DNA from: an uncultured Candidatus Saccharibacteria bacterium
Lineage (GTDB): Bacteria; Patescibacteriota; Saccharimonadia; Saccharimonadales; Saccharimonadaceae
Length of the DNA stretch: 64,000 nt
NCBI GenBank assembly: GCA_947304135.1
Contig: CAMYZZ010000001.1
Location: 24,872-88,871, forward strand
Reading direction: 5' to 3'
Part shown: in pieces, positions 2,410 to 17,647 of the stretch
Layout of the letters: each line of letters opens with the position of its first letter
How positions within the stretch are numbered: the stretch's first letter is position 1
Made by a program: the position numbers and the translations under genes
Notes under the pieces: model-generated
Databases searched by the model: none
The model's input: only the letters and a program-made list of their open reading frames with translations
Told to the model about the DNA's origin: nothing

Positions 2410-3978
2410 TTATTTGGAGAGCTCAAAAGCGGTAAGATGCTTATCGGAAAAATCGGAAACAATATGGTAGTCTTTGAGAACGTCTGGGAATTCGTAGTCT
2501 GTGGTATTTTCTGGGACCTCACTAGTTTTGACTAGGTACCAGATTTTGTCTTGGCCTTTTAGGAATTCTGCGTCGTTTTCGACCATATTATATTTGTAAC
2601 GTTCTATCGGCAGGAAGGAGTCGTATGGAGTGTTGACGAGCGCATCTAGACCATAGACTGGAGTCTTGTCATTAGAATAGAAGACTGCATCATAATAAAC
2701 CCACTCGTCTGCTGGAATGATTGGCGTACCTGATTCGGAAATTGCATCAATAGCAAGGACAGCTTGCTTAACGTAGCTTTCGGTTTCGCGAGTTTCGACA
2801 TTGATGACGCCAAGGATGGCGGTGCTAATAGTAGGTAGGACAAGGGCGGCGGAGAGCGCAAGTCTGACAAGGACGGTGGCGTGGATGGATTTTTGCTTGG
2901 AGTGCTCGGCTAGATTTTTTTGGTGGTTCTGGCAAACGAATTTTGCAACGATAGTGCCAATCAGTGCCCAAAGGAGGGCAGCGGCATAGGTGACGTAGCG
3001 ACTGACAAAAATCGGTTTGAATGGCGGGACGCTCAGGAGCATTAGAATAATTGGCGGGATAAAAACTAGACTTGCGAGCAATAGGAAGCTTTGTTTTTCT
3101 CTTGCTTTGAAAGCTTTGTAGATTTTGGCTCCAGCGAAAATAACGGCAAGAATTGTGGCGAGGAGGAGTACTACCAGCCAGTTTTTTGCAGCACTAGCAT
3201 CTTTAAAAATGAGGGCTTCGGAAATATAGCTGGCGGCAGTACCGAATGACAATTCCGGGATCCAGAAGCCACTTTGGACGGAATTGGTCTGAGCGAGGAA
3301 CGACGGTATCCATGGAATGTAAAGCAAGACGGCTAGCGCATAGGTCAGCAGGAATTTTTTGTCCCAAATTTTGGCGCGACGGGCGGCCATATAATATATA
3401 ATATGCGCGAGCCAGGCGATGGCGGTGAAATAGTGCGTCCACATGCCAAGTGAAATCAGGATCGCATATAATATATAGTAACGAGTTTTCTTGGTTTCTA
3501 ATGCTATGTCTAGAACATAAGTCGCAAGAGCGACGATGAAAAAGACCAGCATATACATGCGCATTTCTTGGCCATAGCGGACAAACATCGGGGAGAGTGT
3601 AAGGAAAAATGTGGCGACGGATGCGATTTTGAGACCGAACCAGCGCCTTAGTAAATAGAACAAAATAATAATCGTAAGAGCGCCAAAAAATACTGACATG
3701 AAACGGAGCGCAACGTCGGAATAGCCAAAAATTAGCGACCAAATTTTGAGACAGAAATAGTAGAACGGCGGGTGGACGTCGGAAGCGGTTAGACTCCAAA
3801 TGTCGCCAAAATTGCCACGAATAAGGTAGGCTGAATAGGACTCGTCAAACCAAATTGAATTTTTGAGGCCAACCATGCATAAGACCATAAATAAAACGGC
3901 GCATGAAACTGGCACTATGATACTAAAAAAGATTTTTAGACGGTTTGATTTTTTACCTTTTTGGTTTTCCCTGTTCAT
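2410..3978 (-). CDS. GT-C fold glycosyltransferase (family 39/PMT_2, ArnT-like)
   Basis: SIWFDESYS, DVHPPFYY, LRFMSV, QEMRMY, HYF motifs; multiple TM helices. Confidence 0.85.
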   Translation of the reverse strand: MNRENQKGKKSNRLKIFFSIIVPVSCAVLFMVLCMVGLKNSIWFDESYSAYLIRGNFGDIWSLTASDVHPPFYYFCLKIWSLIFGYSDVALRFMSVFFGALTIIILFYLLRRWFGLKIASVATFFLTLSPMFVRYGQEMRMYMLVFFIVALATYVLDIALETKKTRYYILYAILISLGMWTHYFTAIAWLAHIIYYMAARRAKIWDKKFLLTYALAVLLYIPWIPSFLAQTNSVQSGFWIPELSFGTAASYISEALIFKDASAAKNWLVVLLLATILAVIFAGAKIYKAFKAREKQSFLLLASLVFIPPIILMLLSVPPFKPIFVSRYVTYAAALLWALIGTIVAKFVCQNHQKNLAEHSKQKSIHATVLVRLALSAALVLPTISTAILGVINVETRETESYVKQAVLAIDAISESGTPIIPADEWVYYDAVFYSNDKTPVYGLDALVNTPYDSFLPIERYKYNMVENDAEFLKGQDKIWYLVKTSEVPENTTDYEFPDVLKDYHIVSDFSDKHLTAFELSK

Positions 3979-4106: not shown

Positions 4107-5147
4107 TTAGCTATTTGGAGAGAGGAAGAGTTTGACCATTTTGAGGAACATTTGACGGTCGGATTTTTCTAGTTTTCTGTAGGATTCGTAGATTTTTGGA
4201 ATGACGCTTGGGCCGGTTTTCATCATGTCGTTTGGAGTGCCAACTCCGCTATCTTCTAGGACTTTAAAAACAAGGTCGAAGAAGGCTTCTTTTTCTTTGT
4301 TGGTGAGCTTGTTGATCCAGCGTTTGAGAGCACGGTCGGCAATGTCAGACTTTTTGTTGATGGTGGTGCGGATGAGCTTGCCGGTTTTGAGGCTGACATG
4401 CCAGGAATAAATATTGTGCTGGAATAGTAGCTTAGCATCGCTTTTTACGACTACGGTTTTTTCGGTATGGTTAAGCAAACGGCCGACAAAAGAATCTTGC
4501 GGAATATAGTTGACGACGTTTTCTGGAATGCTGTGCGCAAATTTTTGGGAAAGACCAGGTGCGTCAAAGCTGTAGACATTTTTGATTTTTGACTTGATGG
4601 ATTTTTTGGCAGTCGTGACAGCATACATGGAAAGCGTGCCACCTTTGGAATGGCCAACTAGACAATAATCAAATTCTGGATATAGCTTGAATATGTATTT
4701 GAGATATTTTTTGGCGGATTTTTGAGCAGGAATAGTATCCAGAATCGCCATGTTGCAATCTTCGCGCCAGCCGTTTAATGTGCTGTCTGTGCCAGTGTAA
4801 GAAATCACAACTGTACCACCAGGAATGTAAACTGAGATAGCAGAAAACTGTTCCGTGGTTCTTTTGTTGGCACGTTTTTTGAATTCGAAAGCAGGCAAAT
4901 CGCGGTAGCGTTTGGTTTTGCTCATTCTTTCTATGAGCTTTTTGTCTTCTGGCCAAATGTAATGTTTGTCGGCAACATGTTCCATTTTTTTAGCAATGGA
5001 AGAAACAGACTCGACTTTTTGCATTTTGATTTGATCGAACGGAAGATAGGAAAAACGCGACAAAATCATGGCGTCAATTTCAGTTAGCGGGCTTTTGGCG
5101 GAAAACTTTTCTTTGCAATTTTTGTTGAGATAGTCAAAGACGTCCAT
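4107..5147 (-). CDS. DUF2974 (Mbeg1-like) alpha/beta hydrolase
   Basis: EIDAMILSRFSY, QFSA, GTDSTLNGWRED, nucleophile GHSKGG, FDAPG, VGRLL, H near C-terminus. Confidence 0.85.
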   Translation of the reverse strand: MDVFDYLNKNCKEKFSAKSPLTEIDAMILSRFSYLPFDQIKMQKVESVSSIAKKMEHVADKHYIWPEDKKLIERMSKTKRYRDLPAFEFKKRANKRTTEQFSAISVYIPGGTVVISYTGTDSTLNGWREDCNMAILDTIPAQKSAKKYLKYIFKLYPEFDYCLVGHSKGGTLSMYAVTTAKKSIKSKIKNVYSFDAPGLSQKFAHSIPENVVNYIPQDSFVGRLLNHTEKTVVVKSDAKLLFQHNIYSWHVSLKTGKLIRTTINKKSDIADRALKRWINKLTNKEKEAFFDLVFKVLEDSGVGTPNDMMKTGPSVIPKIYESYRKLEKSDRQMFLKMVKLFLSPNS

Positions 5148-5162
5148 ATCTTATATTATACC

Positions 5163-5192
5163 AAAAAGCTACGCCTTTTGACGTAGCTTTTT
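5163..5192. terminator. Bidirectional-type intrinsic terminator
   Basis: AAAAAGCTACG-CCTTTTGA-CGTAGCTTTTT. Confidence 0.75.
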
Positions 5193-5209
5193 GTAAGTTT
5201 AACGGCGTA

Positions 5210-6157
5210 CTAGCGCATCATGCCGCGACCGGTTTGGCCAGGCTGCTGGTTGGTCCGGCCGGGCTGCTGACCACCGCCACCGTTTGCAAATTGATTGGTG
5301 ATTTCGGTGGTTTCAGTACCGTTTACAATCATTTTGCCACCAGTGTATTTTGCGGTACCGTCGTAGTCGAATGGAGACTGGGCGGTAATTGTAAGTGTAC
5401 CACCATTGATGTAGAGATCGCCATTTGAGTCAATGGCGTCAGTATCGCCCTGACCCATGTCAATCGTGATATCTCCGCCATTGATCTCGACCTTGACGGA
5501 ATATTTGTCGGATTTGTTGGCGGCGTTGATACCGTCGTCTGTGGCGGTAATTTTGAGTGTACCGCCATCAATCACGACATAAGTAGCCTCAAGACCTTCG
5601 GCAGCAGTGATGGCGACATCGCCGTTTTTGATTGTAAGTTTGCCATCCGCGTGGATACCGTCGTCATCAGCTTTTACCACGAGCGAGCCCTCGCCGGCGA
5701 TGGTTAGATCGCCTTCGGAATTGATACCGTCGCTATCTACAGCGCTGGTGATTTTATTCACGCCAATGAGCTGGATTTCTACGTTACTTCCCTCCTGACA
5801 TTTGATAGCGGCGCCATCGTTGCCGGTGGTTGTAACGCCGTTTAATATAATTGTGACTTTTTCTGTAGTATCAACAGAAATTTTGCCCGTGATAGCTCCA
5901 GTAAAAGTATAGGTGCCGCCGGAAGCAATTTTGTTGCTACCGTTTTTTAGCTCTGTGGAGCTTGTAGCAGCGCTAGAGGTTTGACTGTCAACAACTTCTG
6001 TGTCGGCAGAAACGATAGTTTCTGATTCGGTTGCCTGGTGACTTATAACATAAAATCCACCAAACCCTAGTCCCGCCACCAACGCACTGGCGCCGATGCC
6101 GAGTGCGATTTTTTGACCTAATTTGAGGCCGCCAAATTTATAAACTTTGTTACTCAT
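5210..6157 (-). CDS. Carbohydrate-binding beta-helix protein (Cthe_2159/DUF4353 family), membrane anchored
   Basis: GTYTFTG, IILNGVT, DGINS, DDGIHA, DDGINA, DTDAIDSNG repeats; N-terminal TM; Gly/Gln tail. Confidence 0.85.
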   Translation of the reverse strand: MSNKVYKFGGLKLGQKIALGIGASALVAGLGFGGFYVISHQATESETIVSADTEVVDSQTSSAATSSTELKNGSNKIASGGTYTFTGAITGKISVDTTEKVTIILNGVTTTGNDGAAIKCQEGSNVEIQLIGVNKITSAVDSDGINSEGDLTIAGEGSLVVKADDDGIHADGKLTIKNGDVAITAAEGLEATYVVIDGGTLKITATDDGINAANKSDKYSVKVEINGGDITIDMGQGDTDAIDSNGDLYINGGTLTITAQSPFDYDGTAKYTGGKMIVNGTETTEITNQFANGGGGQQPGRTNQQPGQTGRGMMR

Positions 6158-6820
6158 TTATAATTCCTCCTCTATCATTGGATGTGACAAAGCAACTTTG
6201 AGGTTGCCGTTTTTGACACGAATTTTATCTATAAAATCTTTTTCGTTGATTTTATTCTTTGTCTCGATATCATAGGTTAGCTCAAACATACTACCCATGT
6301 TGGTAGTTTTGGTTTTGATGAGCTTGTGCTTTTTGGTGTAAATTTTGAAAATATCATCAAACATTTCGGTGTAGTCAAGATCTTCTGGAATAAGAATGGC
6401 GAGCTTTTTGTTGAACGAATTGTTTTCGCCAAAATTAACATATTTTAGGAATGCGATAATCGCAGAAACGATGGCCGTGAAGATTGCTGCAAAGGCAACA
6501 TAGCCGGTACCGACCGCAAGACCAATCGCCATCGCAAAGAAAATGGAAAGGATGCTTCTGGAATTTCCTGGAATAGAACGGAAGCGGACAAGCGAGAAGA
6601 CGCCGACCGTGGCGACACCTGCGCCAAGGTTGCCGTTGACAAGCATGATAGCCATTGCGACGAGCATTGGTAAAATTGCAAGCGTGGTGACAAAACCGCT
6701 ACTGGCGCGGCTGGTCTTTTTGTGGACTAATGCTACGATTAGTCCGAGTACGAGGGCGACGCCCAGACAAATGAAGAAATTCGCCGGAGTTACGCCCGAA
6801 GTAATAATACTTTGAAACAT
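6158..6820 (-). CDS. DUF4956 membrane protein
   Basis: VNGNLGAGVATVGVFSLVRFRS, FFAMAIGLAVGTG, IPEDLDY, TTNMGSMFELTY, RVKNGNL; SD GGAGA. Confidence 0.9.
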   Translation of the reverse strand: MFQSIITSGVTPANFFICLGVALVLGLIVALVHKKTSRASSGFVTTLAILPMLVAMAIMLVNGNLGAGVATVGVFSLVRFRSIPGNSRSILSIFFAMAIGLAVGTGYVAFAAIFTAIVSAIIAFLKYVNFGENNSFNKKLAILIPEDLDYTEMFDDIFKIYTKKHKLIKTKTTNMGSMFELTYDIETKNKINEKDFIDKIRVKNGNLKVALSHPMIEEEL

Positions 6821-6828
6821 ATTTCTCC

Positions 6829-7527
6829 TTAATAAACATTGTGATTATATATTACTTTTTCGGTGACGCGTCCGTATTTTGAAAATGACGCGGGATAAAT
6901 TTTTAGCTTGGAAAGTGCACGGACAAAGAAAAATGGATAGGCATCTAGTGCTTTTACTTCCATCACGACAATTCCTTTTTTGAAAAATTTTTTGCCATGA
7001 TCGCCTTTTTCTAGCCTTAAATTGTTGTTCCTGCTACGAACGTTGCGGTCAAAGGTGACACGGAAAGTCGGGTCATCTTTGCTACAATACGAGGTTCGAT
7101 CGTAGGCTAAGAACATGGTTGGCTCAAGGCTATATCTCTCTATACAAGTGTCTAATTCTTTTTTGATAACTTCCGAATTGCTGTCTAGCTGCCCGGTTTT
7201 TAGATATTTGTAGAAATCGGAAAGCTTGACTGGGATACGGCGTTTACTGCCGACACCGTTAAATTTCTTCTTGATTTCTAGAAAAACTGTGTCGCTTAGT
7301 TTTGGGACACCATAACTTCTAATACGGATTTTTTCTTTGTACACTGGCTTTTCCATGGAATGAATTGCAAGGTAACGATTTTTGTTATCGAAATAAACAC
7401 TGCAGTTCGTTCCTTTGAAATATTTATCCTTTTTTAGATATGGCGAAACCTGCCACATCAAGTCTTGGACCTGCTTTTCCGTCAGCAAGTATTTGATTTC
7501 TTGGCGACGGAAAATTTGTTGAGCCAT
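6829..7527 (-). CDS. VTC (polyphosphate polymerase, CYTH/TTM-like) domain protein
   Basis: FRRQEIKYLL, SVYFD, KEKIRIRSYG, FLEIKKK, KRR, YDRTSY, RVTFD, MEVK, FSKYG. Start MAQQ with SD AAAGGA. Confidence 0.9.
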   Translation of the reverse strand: MAQQIFRRQEIKYLLTEKQVQDLMWQVSPYLKKDKYFKGTNCSVYFDNKNRYLAIHSMEKPVYKEKIRIRSYGVPKLSDTVFLEIKKKFNGVGSKRRIPVKLSDFYKYLKTGQLDSNSEVIKKELDTCIERYSLEPTMFLAYDRTSYCSKDDPTFRVTFDRNVRSRNNNLRLEKGDHGKKFFKKGIVVMEVKALDAYPFFFVRALSKLKIYPASFSKYGRVTEKVIYNHNVY

Positions 7528-7599
7528 GTTAATCCTTTCTACCAAAACATTCATTTTGGTAGCTTTATTATAACTTTTATAACTTAAAAGAACCTTAAC

Positions 7600-7750
7600 G
7601 GAACGTGGGCGACTAAAACAGACTATTGCAGTTCGGGACTTGCGAACTTGTAAAAAATACAACACCTTCTAGGTGCTGTATTTTTTACGTTCGCAAATCT
7701 GGTCTAAATCTCATTACGAACTGCAATAGTCTGTTTTAGCCACCCGTTCC
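7600..7750 (-). repeat. ~150-nt near-palindromic rod directly after the aspS stop (REP/MITE-like element or structured RNA)
   Basis: Outer arms include a 23-bp perfect IR (CTAAAACAGACTATTGCAGTTCG); inner arm ~25 bp; several mismatches are G-U wobbles on the minus strand. Confidence 0.8.
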
Positions 7751-9549
7751 TAGTCTTCTGGCTCGATAATAGCGATTCCGGCTTCTTCGAGTTGGACGTC
7801 GTCGACTGCGGCTGGGGAGTTCATCATGAGATCTACGCCGGCGCCGTTCTTTGGGAAGGCGACGATGTCGCGGATGTTTTTGTTGTCGTTTAGGATCATA
7901 AAGATGCGGTCTAGGCCTGGAGCACAACCAGCATGTGGAGGCGCACCAAATTTGAAGGCGTTGAGCAAACCGCCGAAACGTTTTTCTACATAGGCCTGAT
8001 TGTAACCAAGTAAACCAAAGACTTTGTACATGATTTCTGGATTGTGGTTTCTGACAGCGCCGGAAGCGACTTCGTAGCCGTTCATAACCATGTCGTATTG
8101 GTCGGCAACGATAGCGAGTTTTTCTGCATCTGTCTTGGCATTTTTTAGAGCTTCCATACCGCCTTTTGGCATAGAGAATGGATTGTGGCCAAAGTCTAGT
8201 TTCTGGTTATTTTCGTCCCATTCGTAGAATGGAAAATCGATCACCCAGCAGAGGGCGATTTCGTTGTCTTTTTTGAGTTCAAAATGATCTGCAAAGGCGA
8301 TGCGGAGCTGGCCTAGGACCTTGTTGACTTTGTCGCGAGTGTCTGCACCAAAGAATACGGCGTCGCCATCTTCTGCGCCGGTAAGCTCTTTGATTTTGGC
8401 AAGCTCTTCTGGTTTTAAGAACTTGGCAATTGGAGATTTTTCTTCGCCAGATTCATATAATATATATGCAAGGCCGCCGGCACCAAGTTTTTTGGCTTGG
8501 TCTGTAAAATTGTCGATTTGAGAACGAGTGAGAGAAGCGCCACCCTTAACACATAGAGCTTTGACGCATGGGCTCTGAAAAACTTTGAACTCGGTGTCTT
8601 TTAGTGCGTCGGTAAGCTCGATGAGCTCCATGCCATAGCGAAGGTCTGGCTTGTCGACGCCGTAAAGATTCATTGCGTCGCGATATGGGATGCGTGGGAT
8701 AGTCTCTCCACTAGGAATAAACTTTTTGGCAGACTCGGAGCGAAGGATGATTTTTTTGCTCACGAATTTTGTAGCTAAATCGATATAAAGTGGCTCGATT
8801 TCTTTTCGGACAACCTCACCGTCGTCAACAAATGACATCTCTAAATCTAGCTGGTAAAAATCGCCATAAAGACGGTCTGCGCGAGGGTCCTCGTCACGGA
8901 AACATGGGGCGATTTGGTAATATTTTGGAACGCCACCAACCATAAGAAGCTGCTTGAACTGCTGTGGGGCCTGTGGCAAAGCATAGAACTGGCCTGGATG
9001 AAGGCGGGATGGAATCAGAAAATCACGGGCACCTTCTGGAGAAGAGTTGGCCAAGATTGGCGTGGCTACCTCGATGAAATCGTGAGCCTCCATGTAATCG
9101 CGGATGAACTTGTAGTACTCGGCGCGGCGTTTTAGTGTGCGCTGCATGGAAGGACGGCGAAGATCAAGATAACGATATTTGAGACGCATTTCTTCTGAAG
9201 ACTCATCGCCCTCGTCGTGAGTGTTGACCGGGAGAGGCTCGGAGCGATTTAGGAGTGTTAGGCTATCTACGACAAGCTCGATATTGCCGGTCTCGATGTT
9301 TGGGTTTTTGAGATCGTCTGCACGCTCGCGGATGGAGCCGCTAGCTTTTATCACGAACTCGTCACGTAAGGTTTCTGCGAGAGCAAAAGCATCTTTGGTG
9401 TCTGGCGTAATAACGAGCTGAATAATTCCCTTGTGGTCGCGGAGGTCGATAAAGATTAGGCCGCCATGATCGCGGCGAGAATTAACCCAGCCAGCTACAG
9501 TGACAGTGTTTCCGATTTGTGATTTTAGGTCAGTAGATAATGCTCTCAT
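7750..9549 (-). CDS. aspS: Aspartate--tRNA ligase
   Basis: RRDHGGLIFIDLRD, RLKYRYLDLRR, PEGARDFL, LPQAPQQFKQLLM, CFRDED, FGAPPHAG. Confidence 0.97.
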   Translation of the reverse strand: MRALSTDLKSQIGNTVTVAGWVNSRRDHGGLIFIDLRDHKGIIQLVITPDTKDAFALAETLRDEFVIKASGSIRERADDLKNPNIETGNIELVVDSLTLLNRSEPLPVNTHDEGDESSEEMRLKYRYLDLRRPSMQRTLKRRAEYYKFIRDYMEAHDFIEVATPILANSSPEGARDFLIPSRLHPGQFYALPQAPQQFKQLLMVGGVPKYYQIAPCFRDEDPRADRLYGDFYQLDLEMSFVDDGEVVRKEIEPLYIDLATKFVSKKIILRSESAKKFIPSGETIPRIPYRDAMNLYGVDKPDLRYGMELIELTDALKDTEFKVFQSPCVKALCVKGGASLTRSQIDNFTDQAKKLGAGGLAYILYESGEEKSPIAKFLKPEELAKIKELTGAEDGDAVFFGADTRDKVNKVLGQLRIAFADHFELKKDNEIALCWVIDFPFYEWDENNQKLDFGHNPFSMPKGGMEALKNAKTDAEKLAIVADQYDMVMNGYEVASGAVRNHNPEIMYKVFGLLGYNQAYVEKRFGGLLNAFKFGAPPHAGCAPGLDRIFMILNDNKNIRDIVAFPKNGAGVDLMMNSPAAVDDVQLEEAGIAIIEPED

Positions 9550-11899: not shown

Positions 11900-12055
11900 T
11901 TAGCGAACAAGACAAACCACATCGAGCGAGCCCGTACGATAGGTGTCGCTGTAGATGAAGGCGTACACGCTATCGACGTGGAGGTAGTAGGCGCGGTTAG
12001 TAGAAGCGCGCGGAGTAGACGACCAATAGTTGCCGGACCAGCCCGTAGTATTGTA
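11900..12055 (-). other. Putative DGR variable region (VR)
   Basis: Last 51 sense codons contain no A-ending codon; 17 of 19 codons at 11942-11998 are NNC; located at the extreme C-terminus of a CLec-like domain. Confidence 0.65.
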
Positions 12056-14950
12056 TAGAGCTTCGTCCTCACCATAGGTGTTGATTAGGGATTGAAATTC
12101 AGATTGAGATGGAACGCCAGTACCGGAAGGACAAAGGGATGCGGTATTATCGAAGGTTGCGGTTCCTTGGCTAGATTTGGTATAGCAAGCACCGGTAGCT
12201 CCAAAGTCACCAATTAGTTTAATGTATTCAACGCTATTATAGGTAAAGGTGCCTTTGTTTGCGGTTGCAACACATGCGCCCTGTAGCGATGGGCGTGGTA
12301 GTGCGTAAAATGTTATAGTAGTTGTACTTATAGAGTCATTATTTGTTACTGTTATAGTTTGCTGTCCAGTACTGTCGAGTCCGGTAGAATATCCCGTACA
12401 GCTATATCCAGATGGACAAGTAACTCTAGATAGATAGTAGCCAGAGCTTGGTGTGACGGTTACGGTCTTACTGCCGCCATATGGCACGGAGAGGCTAGAT
12501 GCGCCGGAAGTAGTGTTGTTGTTGCTGATGTTGACGGTATAGTTATTGGCGGCACAGACGGCATAGTAGGTAGTGTTGCCAGTAATAGTTCTAGAAGTTC
12601 CGCCAGTATACTGTGTGCCGGAAGCGCTACCTTCGGCCCATTTACAACTATGGCCAGTCTTAGAGATGGCTGGGAGAGTGAAGGAGTTGGAAGTATTGCT
12701 ATAGGAGGCTGTCAAAGTAGCTGCACCAGCACCGTAGGTAAACGTATTGGTCGAGCCGACCCAAGTACCGGAACCGCTAAGGCTCCAGGAGGAGAATGGA
12801 CGAGTGACACTGGTTGGGGAGCCTGTATAGGAAGCCCCCTGTCCGTTACCGTCATAGGAGATTGTATAGCTAGGGCCAGCGGTTGGGTTAGAGATGATAA
12901 TAGATTCGTTGTAGGTGCCGGTACGCTGATTGTTAACGAACCCAGATTGTGACCAGGTGCCACCATTGGGGTTGACTGTTAAGGTGTAGTGGTTATCCCA
13001 CTTAGCGTAAAGATTCTTGGTAGTATTATGTGTGCCACAATAGCTTGCAGTCTGGGCGGCGGTGAGAGTGGCGCCATTAGCGAACACTACCGAACCACTA
13101 GCAGATTCTGCCCATCCTAAGAAAGTATAGCCCGTGATTGAGAATGCATTGCTGGTTAATGTTACTGCCTGGTTGTATGTCATTGACGAATCGCTCATTG
13201 AGCCACTGGCAGTAGTGCCGGATGGGGCGTTAGAGTTGTAAGTGATAGGACAGGTATTGATGGCGCCATTAGCAGTGACGGAGACGTCATTGTCTGGCAT
13301 GGTAAATTGATTGTTATTGATAGTCACACCACCAGAGTTGACGGTCCAGCTGGAGAAATGGTAGCCAGTACTAGCGGTGGCGCCAATGTTAACTGTACTA
13401 CCATAATTATGGCTGCCAGAGCCTGTAGTAGATGCAATGTTTGTGCCTGCAGTGACAGTGACGTTGTGAGAGTTAACAGCACACACAGCATAGAACTCCG
13501 TGTTGGCGGTGATGGTGACGTTGGTTTCTCCGCTAGCGTGGGAGGCTCCGGAGGCACTGTTCTCATGCCAGGTGCAGGTATGGCCGGTCTTGGTGACAGT
13601 TGGGAGAGTGAAGGTGTTTGAAGTGCTGTTATAGCCGGCGGTTAGGGTGTCGCTAGCGATATTGTAGGTATAGGTATTTGTAGTTGTGTCAAAGGAGCCA
13701 GATGGAGAGCCGCCGCCAGTTGCAGTTAGTGTCCAGCCAGTGAAAGGCCTACTGACGCTGGTTGGGGCTGGAGGGTTAGGATTATAGGTTGCACTTTGAG
13801 AGTTGTCATTGTAGGAGATTGTATATGTGGCGTTGGCAGATGGAGTACCAATAACTTTTGTACTGCCGTAGTCTCCTGGGAAGGTTTGCGTAGAGGTGGA
13901 GCCGCTCCAGGTGCCGCCATTTGGATCTACTGTAAGGGTGGAGCTAACAATAGTCCACTGCGCATTAAGAGTTTTTGTACCAGAGATGACAGATGCGGTT
14001 GGGTCAGCTGTAACAGTGACATTATCGCCTGGTAGATACGGATTTGTTCTACTTCCCTTTTCCCCTTCTTCTGCTTCTGGATCTACGTAATTACCAAAGG
14101 TATACCCTACTAAGGTTGGGGCGGTATCTGGAATAGTGAAGGTGTAGGATGTTGCGGAGGCAGAGGCGGTTTGGTTGACTGGGAAGTTCTCAATATCTGA
14201 TGGGTCTACACCACTTGGTGCGTTCTTGTCGAAGTAGAGAGTGTAGTCAATGGACTCTGCATTAGCGATAGCAGTGAAGAGGAGCTGGTTGGTGTAGGAA
14301 CCGGCGGTGATAGTAGTATCTACGCCAACATTAATATCTACATTAGCCTTTGTAGAAGTGGTTGGTGACATGAGCATGCCAATCTGGTCTGGGTTACCAT
14401 GGGCTGGGACTACAGTAGCAGAAGATGTGAGAGGGTTGGTGTAGTTCCAGAAGTTGAGGTTAGAGGCTGTACTAGTGGAGGTTGGGATGACATGGGAGTC
14501 CGCAGTGTCTCCTTGGACGAGGTCTGTGGTGTATTGGTTGTTGTGGTCTTTGCCATTAGCCTCTACATAGAGTTTGTAGCCGGTAATGTTACTGGTAGAG
14601 ACATCCACGATGGCGCGCTTGGTGGAAGTAACGCCAGCTGCAGTTGGGGTGAGATCGAAGGAGAGGAGGGAGAGGTCAGAGGTGGCGGTACTATCTAGGA
14701 TGCGGACGGAGATAGAATTGCCTAGGGTGAGGTTAACATCTAGGGATTTGCTGGTTTGGTCGGCGAAGGCGGGAGTGGAGAGGGTGGTTAAGATGGCTAG
14801 GGATAGAGTGGCGGCGGTGCCGAGGCCCAGTATACCCTTGATACTAATCATGCCAAAGGAGGAAATACCGCAAAAAGATAAAATAATTGTTGCTAAACAT
14901 CGACATAGGGTTCTATGTGCGCTTTTTGCTAGCTCCTTGAAGCTTGGCAT
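11900..14950 (-). CDS. Large secreted surface protein: N-terminal beta domain, InlB-B/Listeria-Bacteroides-type repeats, C-terminal C-type-lectin-like (DUF1566/FISUMP-like) domain; probable DGR target
   Basis: SD AAGGAGGT before ATG 14950; signal peptide; TVDPNGG/TGYTFLGW/FTMPDNDVSVTAN repeats; C-terminus CPSG..VPS.SEF..L..YWSST..AYYL..VVCLVR. Confidence 0.85.
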   Translation of the reverse strand: MPSFKELAKSAHRTLCRCLATIILSFCGISSFGMISIKGILGLGTAATLSLAILTTLSTPAFADQTSKSLDVNLTLGNSISVRILDSTATSDLSLLSFDLTPTAAGVTSTKRAIVDVSTSNITGYKLYVEANGKDHNNQYTTDLVQGDTADSHVIPTSTSTASNLNFWNYTNPLTSSATVVPAHGNPDQIGMLMSPTTSTKANVDINVGVDTTITAGSYTNQLLFTAIANAESIDYTLYFDKNAPSGVDPSDIENFPVNQTASASATSYTFTIPDTAPTLVGYTFGNYVDPEAEEGEKGSRTNPYLPGDNVTVTADPTASVISGTKTLNAQWTIVSSTLTVDPNGGTWSGSTSTQTFPGDYGSTKVIGTPSANATYTISYNDNSQSATYNPNPPAPTSVSRPFTGWTLTATGGGSPSGSFDTTTNTYTYNIASDTLTAGYNSTSNTFTLPTVTKTGHTCTWHENSASGASHASGETNVTITANTEFYAVCAVNSHNVTVTAGTNIASTTGSGSHNYGSTVNIGATASTGYHFSSWTVNSGGVTINNNQFTMPDNDVSVTANGAINTCPITYNSNAPSGTTASGSMSDSSMTYNQAVTLTSNAFSITGYTFLGWAESASGSVVFANGATLTAAQTASYCGTHNTTKNLYAKWDNHYTLTVNPNGGTWSQSGFVNNQRTGTYNESIIISNPTAGPSYTISYDGNGQGASYTGSPTSVTRPFSSWSLSGSGTWVGSTNTFTYGAGAATLTASYSNTSNSFTLPAISKTGHSCKWAEGSASGTQYTGGTSRTITGNTTYYAVCAANNYTVNISNNNTTSGASSLSVPYGGSKTVTVTPSSGYYLSRVTCPSGYSCTGYSTGLDSTGQQTITVTNNDSISTTTITFYALPRPSLQGACVATANKGTFTYNSVEYIKLIGDFGATGACYTKSSQGTATFDNTASLCPSGTGVPSQSEFQSLINTYGEDEALYNTTGWSGNYWSSTPRASTNRAYYLHVDSVYAFIYSDTYRTGSLDVVCLVR

Positions 14951-15186
14951 TTGACCTCCTTTAGTATGATTAGTAAGTGTCTGGTCGCACAACCCCGCCA
15001 GGAGTATCAAGGCTAAAATAACAATCCACTATTATTTTTATGCCAGGTATCGCATTCATAGAACGAAAAATGCGACCATCTACTAGTCGCTAAACCAAGT
15101 CTGCTCCAAAAAACGAACAAACGCGTAGATGATCGCATCTCACGCTCGTTTCTTGGATATAAAAATATTAAACAGACTGGTTTAGC
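14951..15186 (-). promoter_or_regulatory. 236-nt structured 5' leader (possible riboswitch/attenuator) downstream of a TTGCGC-17-TATAAT promoter
   Basis: Helix 15186-15173:15103-15089; crossing 13-bp helix 15137-15125:15083-15071; short GCGAC/GTCGC hairpin followed by ATTTTT. Confidence 0.55.
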
Positions 15187-15250: not shown

Positions 15251-16057
15251 CTATATCTGAATCAGGAGGATGATGAGGACGATGAGGGAGATAATGACGC
15301 GGTAGATACCAAAAGCCTTTAAGGAGTTGGACTTTTTGAGGTATTTGAGACAGAAAGAGATCGCAAAGAGGCCGGAGGCAAAGGCTACGATGTTGGCCAG
15401 GGTGAGGACACTGAAATTGCTTATCAGATAATCACGCGTAGTGGAAGAAATGAGAGTCTTAGCGCAGACTGCCGTCATGAGTGGAATAGAGACTAAGAAG
15501 GAATAATCAGCTGAAGATTTAGAGTTAAGACCCATGAGGCGACCAGCAACGATAGTGCTGCCAGAGCGAGAGACACCCGGGATGAGCGCAAAGACCTGGG
15601 CAAGACCAATAATAAGGGCGCGTGGCTTGGTGAGGTAATTCTCGTTTTTTAGCGCAGACTTTTTAGGAAGTTTATCAACGATAATCATCAAGATACCAAC
15701 GACACCCATGGCGATGGCGATAGTGTAGAGCGAGGAGAAAAACGGGGATTCTTCGATGAAGTGGCTCAACGCCAGACCAGCGAGACCAGCTGGGATGCAG
15801 GTGATGATGATGTTGAGGGCTAATTTATAATTGTGCTTTTTGAAGATGTCTTTTATAATCTCGACGATGCGCTTGCGATAGTAGATGAGAAGGGCGAGGA
15901 GAGTGCCAAAGTTGATTAGCTCTAAAAAGAGATGGAAATCGTCTGCGCGGCCGCCGATGAGCTGTTGGACGAGTTCTAGGTGCCCAGATGAAGAGACTGG
16001 GATGAATTCTGTGAGGCCTTGGACAAGGCCGAGTAGTAAACCGATAAAAATATTCAT
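15251..16057 (-). CDS. uppP: Undecaprenyl-diphosphate phosphatase (BacA family)
   Basis: GLVQGLTEFIPVSSSGHL, GTLLALLIYY, AQVFALIPGVSRSGSTI. Confidence 0.95.
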   Translation of the reverse strand: MNIFIGLLLGLVQGLTEFIPVSSSGHLELVQQLIGGRADDFHLFLELINFGTLLALLIYYRKRIVEIIKDIFKKHNYKLALNIIITCIPAGLAGLALSHFIEESPFFSSLYTIAIAMGVVGILMIIVDKLPKKSALKNENYLTKPRALIIGLAQVFALIPGVSRSGSTIVAGRLMGLNSKSSADYSFLVSIPLMTAVCAKTLISSTTRDYLISNFSVLTLANIVAFASGLFAISFCLKYLKKSNSLKAFGIYRVIISLIVLIILLIQI

Positions 16058-16076
16058 AATCTATATTATATACTAA

Positions 16077-17555
16077 TTAGTTGGCTTGATCCTGCGGAAG
16101 GTCGGAGATTGGGATGCGGCCATAGGTATCTGTGCCGTTTGAGAGGAGTTGGTCGCCACCGCTGGCTTGGTCGTTTCCTGGTTGGTCGTTTTCTGGGGCT
16201 GGATTATCTGGCGAGTCTGGGCTTGGGCCGTCTTCTGGCTCTGGATCAGTGTCTCCGTAGGTCGTAATAGTATTCATTACGTTAATTGCCTCTATCACGG
16301 TTTCGTTGTTGATAGCAACTGAGTAGGTACCGTATTTGAGCGATGAGCTAGAGTAGATAATTGTGCGGAAACTATTGCCAGCGGTAACCTTGATGATTTC
16401 GTTACTTCCAGAATCTAGAATAGCAAGAGTAGATTTAGCATCATAGGCTTTGTCCAGCGTGATTACAAGCGTGTTCTGCTTGGAGCTGTCGCTTGGTTTC
16501 TCTAGCATATCTGAGCCTAGGGCGATTAGGGTACCACCATTGATAGTGTAGCCGGTCTCAGTGTCAATGCCGGCGTTACCGCCGTTGCTCGAACCTACGA
16601 CGTAGGTTGCGCCGCCGTTGATAATAAGATCCTTATTAGAGTCAATACCGTCACCATCAGCCTGAATGAAGATTTCGCCATCGTTAATAGTGATTGTACC
16701 GCCATCGCCGCCAGCATTGATACCATCATCAGTAGCAAAGACATTGATGACGCCACCATCTATGGTAATGTCATTGGATTTAGTAGTGATTCCCTCACCC
16801 TCGGCCTGTTTGCCGGTGACGTCAAGCTTGCCAGAATCGCCCTTGATAGTAAGAGCGCCGTCAGAATAAATACAGCCATCATAGTCGGAAGCTCCGCCGT
16901 CAGAGAGGATATTCTCTGTCCCGTCGGCAAGTTCAATAGTGAGAGCGTTTGGCGTAACATTGGCAATTGCAGCCATTTCAACAGCAGAGATAGTGGCATT
17001 ATTTAGATAGAGAGTAACCTCGCCGTTAGCATTGACGATGACTGAATGGTCTATAAGTTCACCTGTCAGCTCGTAGACGCCTGGCTCAGTGATTTCTAGG
17101 TTGGCAGACTGCTCTGTAAGATCAAAGCTATCTGTGAAATCTTTGTCCACTACTGCTGGACTTGGAGAAGGATTATTAGGGGTTTTATTATTGTTAGCAT
17201 TTGTAATCATGATAATTGCTACTACGGCGCAGACAACCAAAGCGGCCGCAATGATAATGAGAGCGATCATACGAGTGTTGACTGGAGGCTTAGGAGAGCG
17301 AACCGGAATGTCTGGCATAGGGTCGGAGTCTGGGATGGTTGAGGCTGGCTGGATTGGAGATGGCTGAGCCGGGAGTGGCTGAACTGGAGATATAGCTGGA
17401 GATGACTCTGGGACTGGTTGCGGTTCTGGAGTTAGCGCAGGAGCAGGCTCAGCGATTGGCTGTGGAGCAGGCTGCGGCGCCGGCGTTGGCGCTGGGTTAG
17501 TTGGCTCCGGGATGGGGTTTTGGTTTGGAGAAAAAGATTGGTTGTCGTTATTCAT
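16077..17555 (-). CDS. Second Cthe_2159/DUF4353 beta-helix protein with Pro-rich N-terminal cytoplasmic tail and one TM
   Basis: PGVYELTG, LYLNNATI, DGCIYS, DDGINA, DGIDSN, AGID repeats; ATG 6 nt after TGCTATAAT. Confidence 0.85.
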   Translation of the reverse strand: MNNDNQSFSPNQNPIPEPTNPAPTPAPQPAPQPIAEPAPALTPEPQPVPESSPAISPVQPLPAQPSPIQPASTIPDSDPMPDIPVRSPKPPVNTRMIALIIIAAALVVCAVVAIIMITNANNNKTPNNPSPSPAVVDKDFTDSFDLTEQSANLEITEPGVYELTGELIDHSVIVNANGEVTLYLNNATISAVEMAAIANVTPNALTIELADGTENILSDGGASDYDGCIYSDGALTIKGDSGKLDVTGKQAEGEGITTKSNDITIDGGVINVFATDDGINAGGDGGTITINDGEIFIQADGDGIDSNKDLIINGGATYVVGSSNGGNAGIDTETGYTINGGTLIALGSDMLEKPSDSSKQNTLVITLDKAYDAKSTLAILDSGSNEIIKVTAGNSFRTIIYSSSSLKYGTYSVAINNETVIEAINVMNTITTYGDTDPEPEDGPSPDSPDNPAPENDQPGNDQASGGDQLLSNGTDTYGRIPISDLPQDQAN

Positions 17556-17647
17556 AGATATATTATAGCATAAGCATTTTAGGAATAAAATCCGAGACCA
17601 AAAAACCGGCGCGAATTGCACCGGTTTAGAAATACTTGGTGAGGCAA

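Follow-up and report, generated by a model that had tools for sequence, protein, structure and literature searches.

Which function could join a soluble VTC-domain protein, a membrane protein of the DUF4956 family, and a surface beta-helix protein in a single operon of a small bacterial genome? Here, we address this question for three genes at positions 5210 to 7527 of a 64,000-nucleotide stretch of DNA, hereafter the window, from an uncultured Candidatus Saccharibacteria bacterium (assembly GCA_947304135.1, contig CAMYZZ010000001.1). In the reading that we tentatively put forward, and to which we give clearly less than an even chance, the operon consists of a two-gene core, i.e., a cytoplasmic Vtc4-type tunnel enzyme and DUF4956, and an exported Cthe_2159 protein, and represents a membrane-associated, polyphosphate-making pair that is linked to a beta-helix at the cell surface. 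It is plausible that the encoded proteins make polyphosphate at the membrane. The three genes are as follows:

6829..7527, minus strand: VTC-domain gene, 232 amino acids (open reading frame list and Pfam)
6158..6820, minus strand: DUF4956 membrane-protein gene, 220 amino acids (open reading frame list and Pfam)
5210..6157, minus strand: Cthe_2159-type right-handed beta-helix gene, 315 amino acids (open reading frame list and Pfam)

The original prediction for this DNA, made from its letters alone, described three tightly coupled genes on the minus strand with gaps of 8 and 0 nucleotides (nt) and sites resembling Shine-Dalgarno (SD) sequences, and this description holds at the coordinates given. 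As read from the sequence, the VTC stop codon TAA (6831-6829) is followed by 8 nt and then by the DUF4956 start codon ATG at 6820, and the DUF4956 stop codon TAA (6160-6158) directly abuts the ATG of the beta-helix gene at 6157. The three predicted family assignments are also correct, each protein matching its Pfam family above the curated cut-off.

The VTC protein and its tunnel

Both its profile match and its predicted structure place this protein squarely in the VTC (Vtc4-type) tunnel family. It matches the Pfam family VTC (PF09359) with 132.2 bits (cut-off 23) over profile positions 2-229 of 235, and its relatives carry the NCBI label “polyphosphate polymerase domain-containing protein.” A profile built from 72 of these relatives matches yeast Vtc4 among solved structures with an expectation (E) value of 2e-11. 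The AlphaFold2 model, with a predicted local distance difference test score (pLDDT) of 93.7, has a closed beta-barrel tunnel fold that is closest to Vtc4. When this model was compared to known structures using Foldseek, the 13 best matches were all Vtc4, Vtc3, or Vtc2 (E 3e-13 to 2e-9; template modeling score ∼0.65-0.7), with the yeast Vtc4 entries 3g3r, 3g3q, and 8i6v heading the list (E about 1e-13), while other triphosphate-tunnel enzymes matched with E 2e-7 or worse. The protein is basic, with an isoelectric point (pI) of 9.8, and soluble, having no hydrophobic segment by hydropathy; in Pfam, it contains a single VTC domain and neither an SPX domain nor a membrane domain.

The residues lining the tunnel are conserved. 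In HMMER alignments to 8i6v_E (the full-length chain) and 3g3q, in which positions were counted along, K12, R68, R70, K86, Y142, R144, and R156 stand opposite Vtc4 K200, R264, R266, K281, Y359, R361, and R373. Among the 72 relatives, R68, R70, K86, R144, and R156 are invariant, and conservation reaches at least 90% at K12 and Y142. The claim that the VTC protein is a Vtc4-type tunnel domain is therefore upheld at all seven tunnel residues. E190, K192, and K217 likewise show no variation in these relatives, and S216 is kept in at least 90% of them; judging only from the coverage of the Pfam and Foldseek matches, E190 and S216-K217 may be the counterparts of Vtc4 E426 and S457-K458. The tunnel residues of Vtc4 reportedly matter for catalysis, as Hothorn et al. 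are said to have described in 2009, and the bacterial protein looks like a putatively competent catalyst.

The yeast VTC complex (Vtc4/Vtc3 or Vtc2/Vtc1; 3G3Q, 7YTJ, and 8I6V) has a catalytic tunnel domain of the same fold and shares the seven basic or tyrosine tunnel residues with the bacterial family, and the bacterial enzyme, like that of yeast, is tied to a membrane protein, in this case genetically. The two systems differ in that the SPX domain and the DUF202-type transmembrane subunit (fused or separate) of the yeast complex are both missing here, and in that the membrane partner is unrelated, being an apparently MgtC-like, five-helix protein with an ACT-like domain. Moreover, the yeast complex resides at the vacuole, whereas the target here would be the cell membrane, with the activity itself being predicted.

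The DUF4956 membrane protein

The product of the second gene matches DUF4956 (PF16316) with 44.7 bits (cut-off 30.6), a family that is matched by all 77 aligned relatives. It has several hydrophobic segments by hydropathy, and its AlphaFold2 model (pLDDT 80) comprises five helices (residues 12-127) and a beta-alpha-beta-beta-alpha-beta ACT-like domain (residues 137-212). Lys and Arg residues cluster in the loops at 34-42 and 79-88 and past helix 5, and a positive-inside count predicts a topology with the N terminus out and the C terminus in. The loop R79-F80-R81-S82 is invariant in the 77 sequences. Among known structures, Foldseek returned weak ACT-like matches only for the model.

In model and profile comparisons, DUF4956 looks like an MgtC-like protein. 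The match of the window protein to MgtC (PF02308) reaches 13.4 bits and lies under the cut-off of 31.4; MgtC is the commonest weak Pfam match in the family, being found for 21 of the 77 members (best E 0.0019), and this match is collinear over the whole membrane part. In an hhalign comparison of DUF4956 with four MgtC proteins, the probability was 47.7% (E 1.9e-4) over 188 collinear columns, including the C-terminal domain. MgtC proteins have five membrane helices followed by a cytoplasmic ACT-like domain and an ...EEL end, as in DUF4956. They differ from it in that DUF4956 has its own invariant GAFSLVRFRS loop and in that MgtC genes are not linked to VTC genes. The DUF4956 homolog of Streptococcus intermedius was likewise described, in 2025, as MgtC plus ACT (PMC12345266). 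MgtC-family proteins of Bacillota and DUF4956 proteins alike end in ...EEL or ...EEI(K/R), which fits distant kinship.

The exported beta-helix protein

The third protein matches the Pfam family Cthe_2159 (PF14262) with 106.5 bits (cut-off 25.8) and the Protein Data Bank (PDB) entries 4peu and 4phb with E 7.8e-9 (4peu over residues 65-257); the operon-linked beta-helix of an Acetivibrio genome matches 4peu with E 1.6e-40. The protein is exported, with a single N-terminal hydrophobic segment (residues 17-35, hydropathy) as its anchor. Homologs in Saccharibacteria also have an anchor, and those in Bacillota mostly have lipoprotein-type signals. The ectodomain contains repeated DDGI(N/H) turns and ends in a Gly/Gln/Pro-rich tail with a terminal Arg. 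VTC-linked beta-helices (5210-5300 in the window, and homologs) mostly have a Gly/Met/Gln/Pro/Asn-rich tail, often with a terminal Arg or Lys, and these tail residues account for 53% of the last 35 residues versus 25% in the core.

Cthe_2159 of Clostridium thermocellum (4PEU and 4PHB) belongs to the same Pfam family and is a beta-helix as well, and both proteins are acidic with Asp-rich turns. The window protein differs in that it is shorter, membrane-anchored, and equipped with the Gly/Gln/Pro-rich tail. Calcium-dependent binding to cellulose or polygalacturonate has been described for Cthe_2159 (10.1101/401869) and is known only for this C. thermocellum protein. The Cthe_2159 domain has also been counted among adhesive domains (PMC9210967).

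Linkage of the three genes across genomes

The linkage between VTC and DUF4956 is strict. We took 80 genome loci of the closest VTC relatives, in 75 of which VTC was labeled by open reading frame calling; in 69 of these 75, the gene immediately downstream, read from the same strand, is DUF4956. Of 66 loci long enough to contain a further gene, 30 have Cthe_2159 immediately after DUF4956. Of 14 control genomes, three match VTC, and the same three match DUF4956; in the class sample of 201 genomes described below, both families were likewise found in one and the same set of 8. The genes flanking VTC loci vary, with histidine kinases making up 7 of 43 upstream genes.

The order of the trio recurs in Saccharibacteria contigs with differing flanks and in dozens of Bacillota genomes, in agreement with the earlier statement that it recurs in Firmicutes. 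Because the same order is found in such differently flanked contigs and in so many Bacillota genomes, the arrangement is not due to chance. Chance adjacency and pseudogenes were considered and rejected, the frames being intact and the conservation deep. The VTC-DUF4956 operon was also present in single bins labeled Muribaculaceae (locus L014, Bacteroidota) and Coriobacteriaceae (locus L081, Actinomycetota); both sequences nest among Bacillota, reflecting either further transfer or mis-binning.

A second VTC-DUF4956 module with CotH

The VTC-DUF4956 core beside CotH is already in print for Gram-positive pel loci (10.1101/768473), and the pair beside CotH is also known in the literature from Clostridium perfringens NELoc-2. 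CotH directly beside the VTC gene of the beta-helix type was therefore expected; this was rejected, as no CotH gene was found directly upstream or downstream of VTC in the related loci. CotH sits elsewhere, with its own VTC/DUF4956 pair. Among 30 genomes carrying the beta-helix type, 18 also have CotH, in no case within the trio locus, and at about ten of the CotH places in these genomes, a second VTC gene, a second DUF4956 gene, or both lie within 1.5 kb. Two paralogous modules thus coexist, each with a VTC-DUF4956 pair and one exported protein, which suggests that one core serves exchangeable exported partners. That two such modules coexist is also what speaks most strongly, in our view, for a role of the pair beyond the membrane.

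The cotH/VTC/DUF4956 accessory genes of pel loci (SIR_1594, SIR_1593, and SIR_1592 in S. intermedius; NELoc-2 in C. perfringens) resemble the operon in the window in that the same pair lies beside a gene for an exported protein, and single Bacillota genomes can carry both a CotH-linked pair and the beta-helix type. They differ in that the partner here is a Cthe_2159 beta-helix and in that there is no pel context; no match to CotH (PF08757) was found in the whole source genome. In the literature that we searched, the beta-helix variant of the module was not described. What is new here is the beta-helix partner, free of CotH and in Saccharibacteria, of a module that had been noticed in print in its CotH type and left uncharacterized.

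Occurrence in Saccharibacteria and origin of the operon

The source assembly has 711 kb and is 96.7% complete, and close homologs carry the names Candidatus Saccharibacteria or Nanosyncoccus. In a class sample of 201 genomes from 117 genera, VTC was present in 8 genomes from 2 genera, DUF4956 was above the cut-off in the same 8, and Cthe_2159 was found in 7 of the 8. In the VTC tree, Saccharibacteria form one clade, with a value of 97 in the Shimodaira-Hasegawa-like approximate likelihood ratio test (SH-aLRT), inside a Bacilli/Erysipelotrichaceae/“Tenericutes” group within the Bacillota radiation. The DUF4956 tree agrees: Saccharibacteria again form one clade (SH-aLRT 99), whose sister (99) is locus L010, from a rumen Bacilli genome. 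In both trees, the clade lies next to a rumen Bacilli genome. Outside the phylum, no beta-helix is more similar than that of L010 (49% identity). Because the trio is rare in the class and its clade nests among Bacillota in the trees, these data point to an en bloc acquisition of the operon, with a Bacilli-like member of the gut or rumen Bacillota (Firmicutes) as the donor and an ancestor of the present Saccharibacteria genus as the recipient. The acquisition would not be recent; the GC content is unremarkable and gives no sign of recent transfer. Accordingly, what had been called retention in a minimal epibiont is better described as acquisition and maintenance.

A possible membrane-associated route to polyphosphate

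To our knowledge, PPK1 and PPK2 underlie everything known of polyphosphate in bacteria. When polyphosphate families were sought, neither PPK1 and PPK2 nor Ppx-GppA was found in the source genome, and there was no match in this genome to DUF202 (PF02656), the membrane domain of the yeast complex. In the reading that we put forward, the VTC protein would draw on ATP (or another nucleoside triphosphate), together with a divalent metal, and assemble a chain of phosphates on the cytoplasmic side of the membrane, where the enzyme may be held or regulated by DUF4956 through its ACT-like domain and its conserved RFRS loop. The product would then be delivered to the envelope, where the calcium-binding, acidic beta-helix could bind or act on it via bridging cations. 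We infer the polymerase activity, the contact between VTC and DUF4956, the translocation, and the interaction between the beta-helix and polyphosphate.

A number of observations weigh against this proposal. HMMER left the C-terminal third of the VTC protein unaligned to Vtc4, so that Vtc4 E426, S457, and K458 were not placed, and a profile of this third alone gave no Vtc4 match among PDB sequences. Our literature searches turned up no bacterial VTC protein that had been assayed biochemically. For DUF4956, Foldseek gave no match for the membrane part and none to the membrane chains of yeast VTC, and MgtC is known as a regulator and not a pore. DUF4956, cast as a membrane conduit in the original prediction, has no detectable likeness to the yeast VTC channel, and its role as a conduit is therefore conjecture. 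The ectodomain of the beta-helix has a net charge of −20 and a pI of 4.1, and the mean net charge of its family is −42. Because it is so strongly acidic, any binding of polyphosphate would have to be bridged by cations, a qualification to the original view of the beta-helix as an extracellular polyanion binder. In addition, the window contains a second Cthe_2159 paralog (16077..17621, minus strand, 514 amino acids) that is unlinked to any VTC gene.

Two further sets of data bear on the partnership of VTC and DUF4956. A Rosetta-stone test, in which an artificial concatenate of VTC and DUF4956 served as the query, uncovered natural VTC-DUF4956 fused open reading frames of 440-477 amino acids in several Clostridia-like lineages (P0121-P0131; loci L086-L089), followed by a gene for a protein of ∼608 amino acids. 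These fusions are weak support for a partnership and in part speak against it: P0125 (>24 contigs) has a frameshift-like, garbled C terminus without the conserved SFSKYG motif, this motif is deleted in P0128, and P0130 is garbled in mid-protein. A cytoplasmic fusion at the N terminus also does not fit DUF4956, because its N terminus is predicted to lie outside. In S. intermedius, strains deleted for either the DUF4956 or the CotH gene aggregated less than half as strongly in one medium and had altered Pel levels; for deletion of the VTC gene, no change was reported (PMC12345266). These are the only genetic data of this kind, and they do not support a strict coupling of VTC and DUF4956.

Other explanations of the operon can be considered. 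One is that the VTC protein is not a polymerase and hydrolyzes or cyclizes a triphosphate, i.e., tripolyphosphate or a nucleoside triphosphate, with DUF4956 responding to or regulating this activity; the label “polyphosphate” would then simply have been carried over from yeast. Most triphosphate-tunnel enzymes hydrolyze or cyclize their triphosphate substrate, in structure, the VTC model comes second closest to tunnel enzymes of other kinds, triphosphatases and class IV cyclases among them, and both the missing assay of a bacterial member in the literature and the silent VTC deletion in S. intermedius are compatible with such a function. However, in Foldseek, Vtc4 is matched better than hydrolases or cyclases by a factor of about a million, the Vtc4 tunnel residues, including the equivalent of K200, are invariant or nearly so, and the Pfam cut-off for VTC is exceeded by a wide margin. 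We regard this explanation as unlikely but as a serious contender. A different possibility is that polyphosphate is made by VTC and stays on the cytoplasmic side, at the membrane, with DUF4956 acting as an MgtC-like anchor or sensor whose ACT domain binds a ligand and which tunes the balance of phosphate and energy, and with a beta-helix that is co-regulated but never meets the polymer. Such an arrangement would agree with the MgtC architecture of DUF4956 and the weak, collinear sequence likeness to MgtC as well as with the failure of Foldseek to find a pore-like match, and the authors of the S. intermedius study themselves proposed that polyphosphate may stay cytoplasmic (10.1101/2024.04.20.589940). 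It leaves unexplained why the third gene, whether for CotH or for a beta-helix, always has an exported product and is translationally coupled to the pair, here with a gap of 0 nt. Also, because the genome is without PPK1, PPK2, and Ppx-GppA, an internal pool of polyphosphate would be a dead end. We consider a purely cytoplasmic polymer rather unlikely.

The remaining explanation concerns the beta-helix, which might be a mere adhesin or a carbohydrate-binding or lyase-like protein directed at host wall or plant polymers and sharing no chemistry with the pair. The binding of cellulose and polygalacturonate by Cthe_2159, the listing of its domain among adhesive domains, the second, unlinked paralog in the window, and the lack of a beta-helix gene in about half of the related loci are all consistent with this idea. 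We nonetheless hold it to be improbable: the beta-helix gene directly follows DUF4956 in loci as distant as those of Bacillota and Saccharibacteria and does so without a gap here, and the trio moved jointly, locus L010 being among the closest relatives outside the phylum for VTC and DUF4956 and the closest for the beta-helix. The reading in which a polyphosphate-making pair is tied to the surface beta-helix can be taken further. A Vtc4-type polymerase might sit on an oligomer of the MgtC-like DUF4956, make the chain from ATP, and thread it outward through the cell membrane, in a route independent of PPK, and exchangeable exported partners, CotH kinases in one paralogous module and calcium-binding Cthe_2159 beta-helices in the other, might bind or use this chain where ATP is absent. 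The operon, borrowed from Bacilli and the only polyphosphate machinery found in the genome, would then coat the surface of the epibiont with a cation-loaded polyanion for attachment or for the capture of cations or phosphate. We offer this extended scheme as speculation and think it quite improbable as a whole.

If the VTC-DUF4956 pair makes polyphosphate, it would represent a third bacterial route beside PPK1 and PPK2, and one that is aimed at the envelope. This would bear on the phosphoryl supply to exported kinases such as CotH. It would also bear on the PPK-independent extracellular polyphosphate reported in the Bacillus cereus group, for which the authors noted that B. cereus has no VTC4 homolog (PMC13484657). 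The operon described here offers a clean minimal case, i.e., a 0.7-Mb genome without CotH and without the other polyphosphate families sought; it also gives evidence that the trio travels between phyla as a unit and that the core pair exists in duplicate, with exported partners that differ.

Transcription signals and neighboring genes

The following signals surround the three genes:

7607..7745, no strand: nested long hairpin of 139 nt, inverted repeats with 29-nt outer arms around an 18-bp terminator-like hairpin
7567..7572, minus strand: candidate −10 box TATAAT with a weak −35 region, ∼40 nt upstream of the VTC start (putative, by eye)
7533..7539, minus strand: SD-like GAAAGGA, 5 nt ahead of the VTC ATG (sequence read)
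6825..6830, minus strand: SD-like AAGGAG, overlapping the VTC stop codon, 4 nt ahead of the DUF4956 ATG (sequence read)
6165..6170, minus strand: SD-like GGAGGA, within the end of the DUF4956 gene, 7 nt ahead of the beta-helix ATG (sequence read)
5163..5192, minus strand: terminator-like hairpin AAAAAGCTACG-TCAAAAGG-CGTAGCTTTTT and T-run, past the last stop codon, closing the operon (sequence read)

The three genes are predicted to form their own transcription unit, because the junctions between them are tight, a hairpin closes the operon, the downstream gene (Mbeg1-like, start at 5147) has its own TATAAT, and a further hairpin lies on the side of the upstream neighbor aspS, which ends at 7750. 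A scan for sigma-70 and terminator consensus sequences did not report the operon terminator at 5163..5192 or the −10 box at 7567..7572. The 233-nt intergenic stretch between aspS and the operon, which holds the hairpin at 7607-7745, has a fold energy of −108.7 kcal/mol (z-score −15.3). The arm sequence of this hairpin occurs once in the window, and an Rfam search of positions 5000-8000 gave no significant match. The hairpin is probably both the aspS terminator and an insulator between that gene and the operon.

The downstream neighbors encode an Mbeg1-like alpha/beta hydrolase (4107-5147, minus strand, 203 bits) and a PMT_2-type glycosyltransferase (2410-3978, minus strand); both are envelope-related, and neither is kept beside the operon in relatives. 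The second Cthe_2159 paralog at 16077..17621 has a Pro-rich N terminus, a membrane anchor, and an acidic Pro-rich tail, and its gene adjoins bacA (15251-16057). A further predicted surface protein of 1036 amino acids, rich in Ser, Thr, and Asn and with repeated “TLTV(D/N)PNGGTWSG...” units, is encoded at 11900-15010 on the minus strand.

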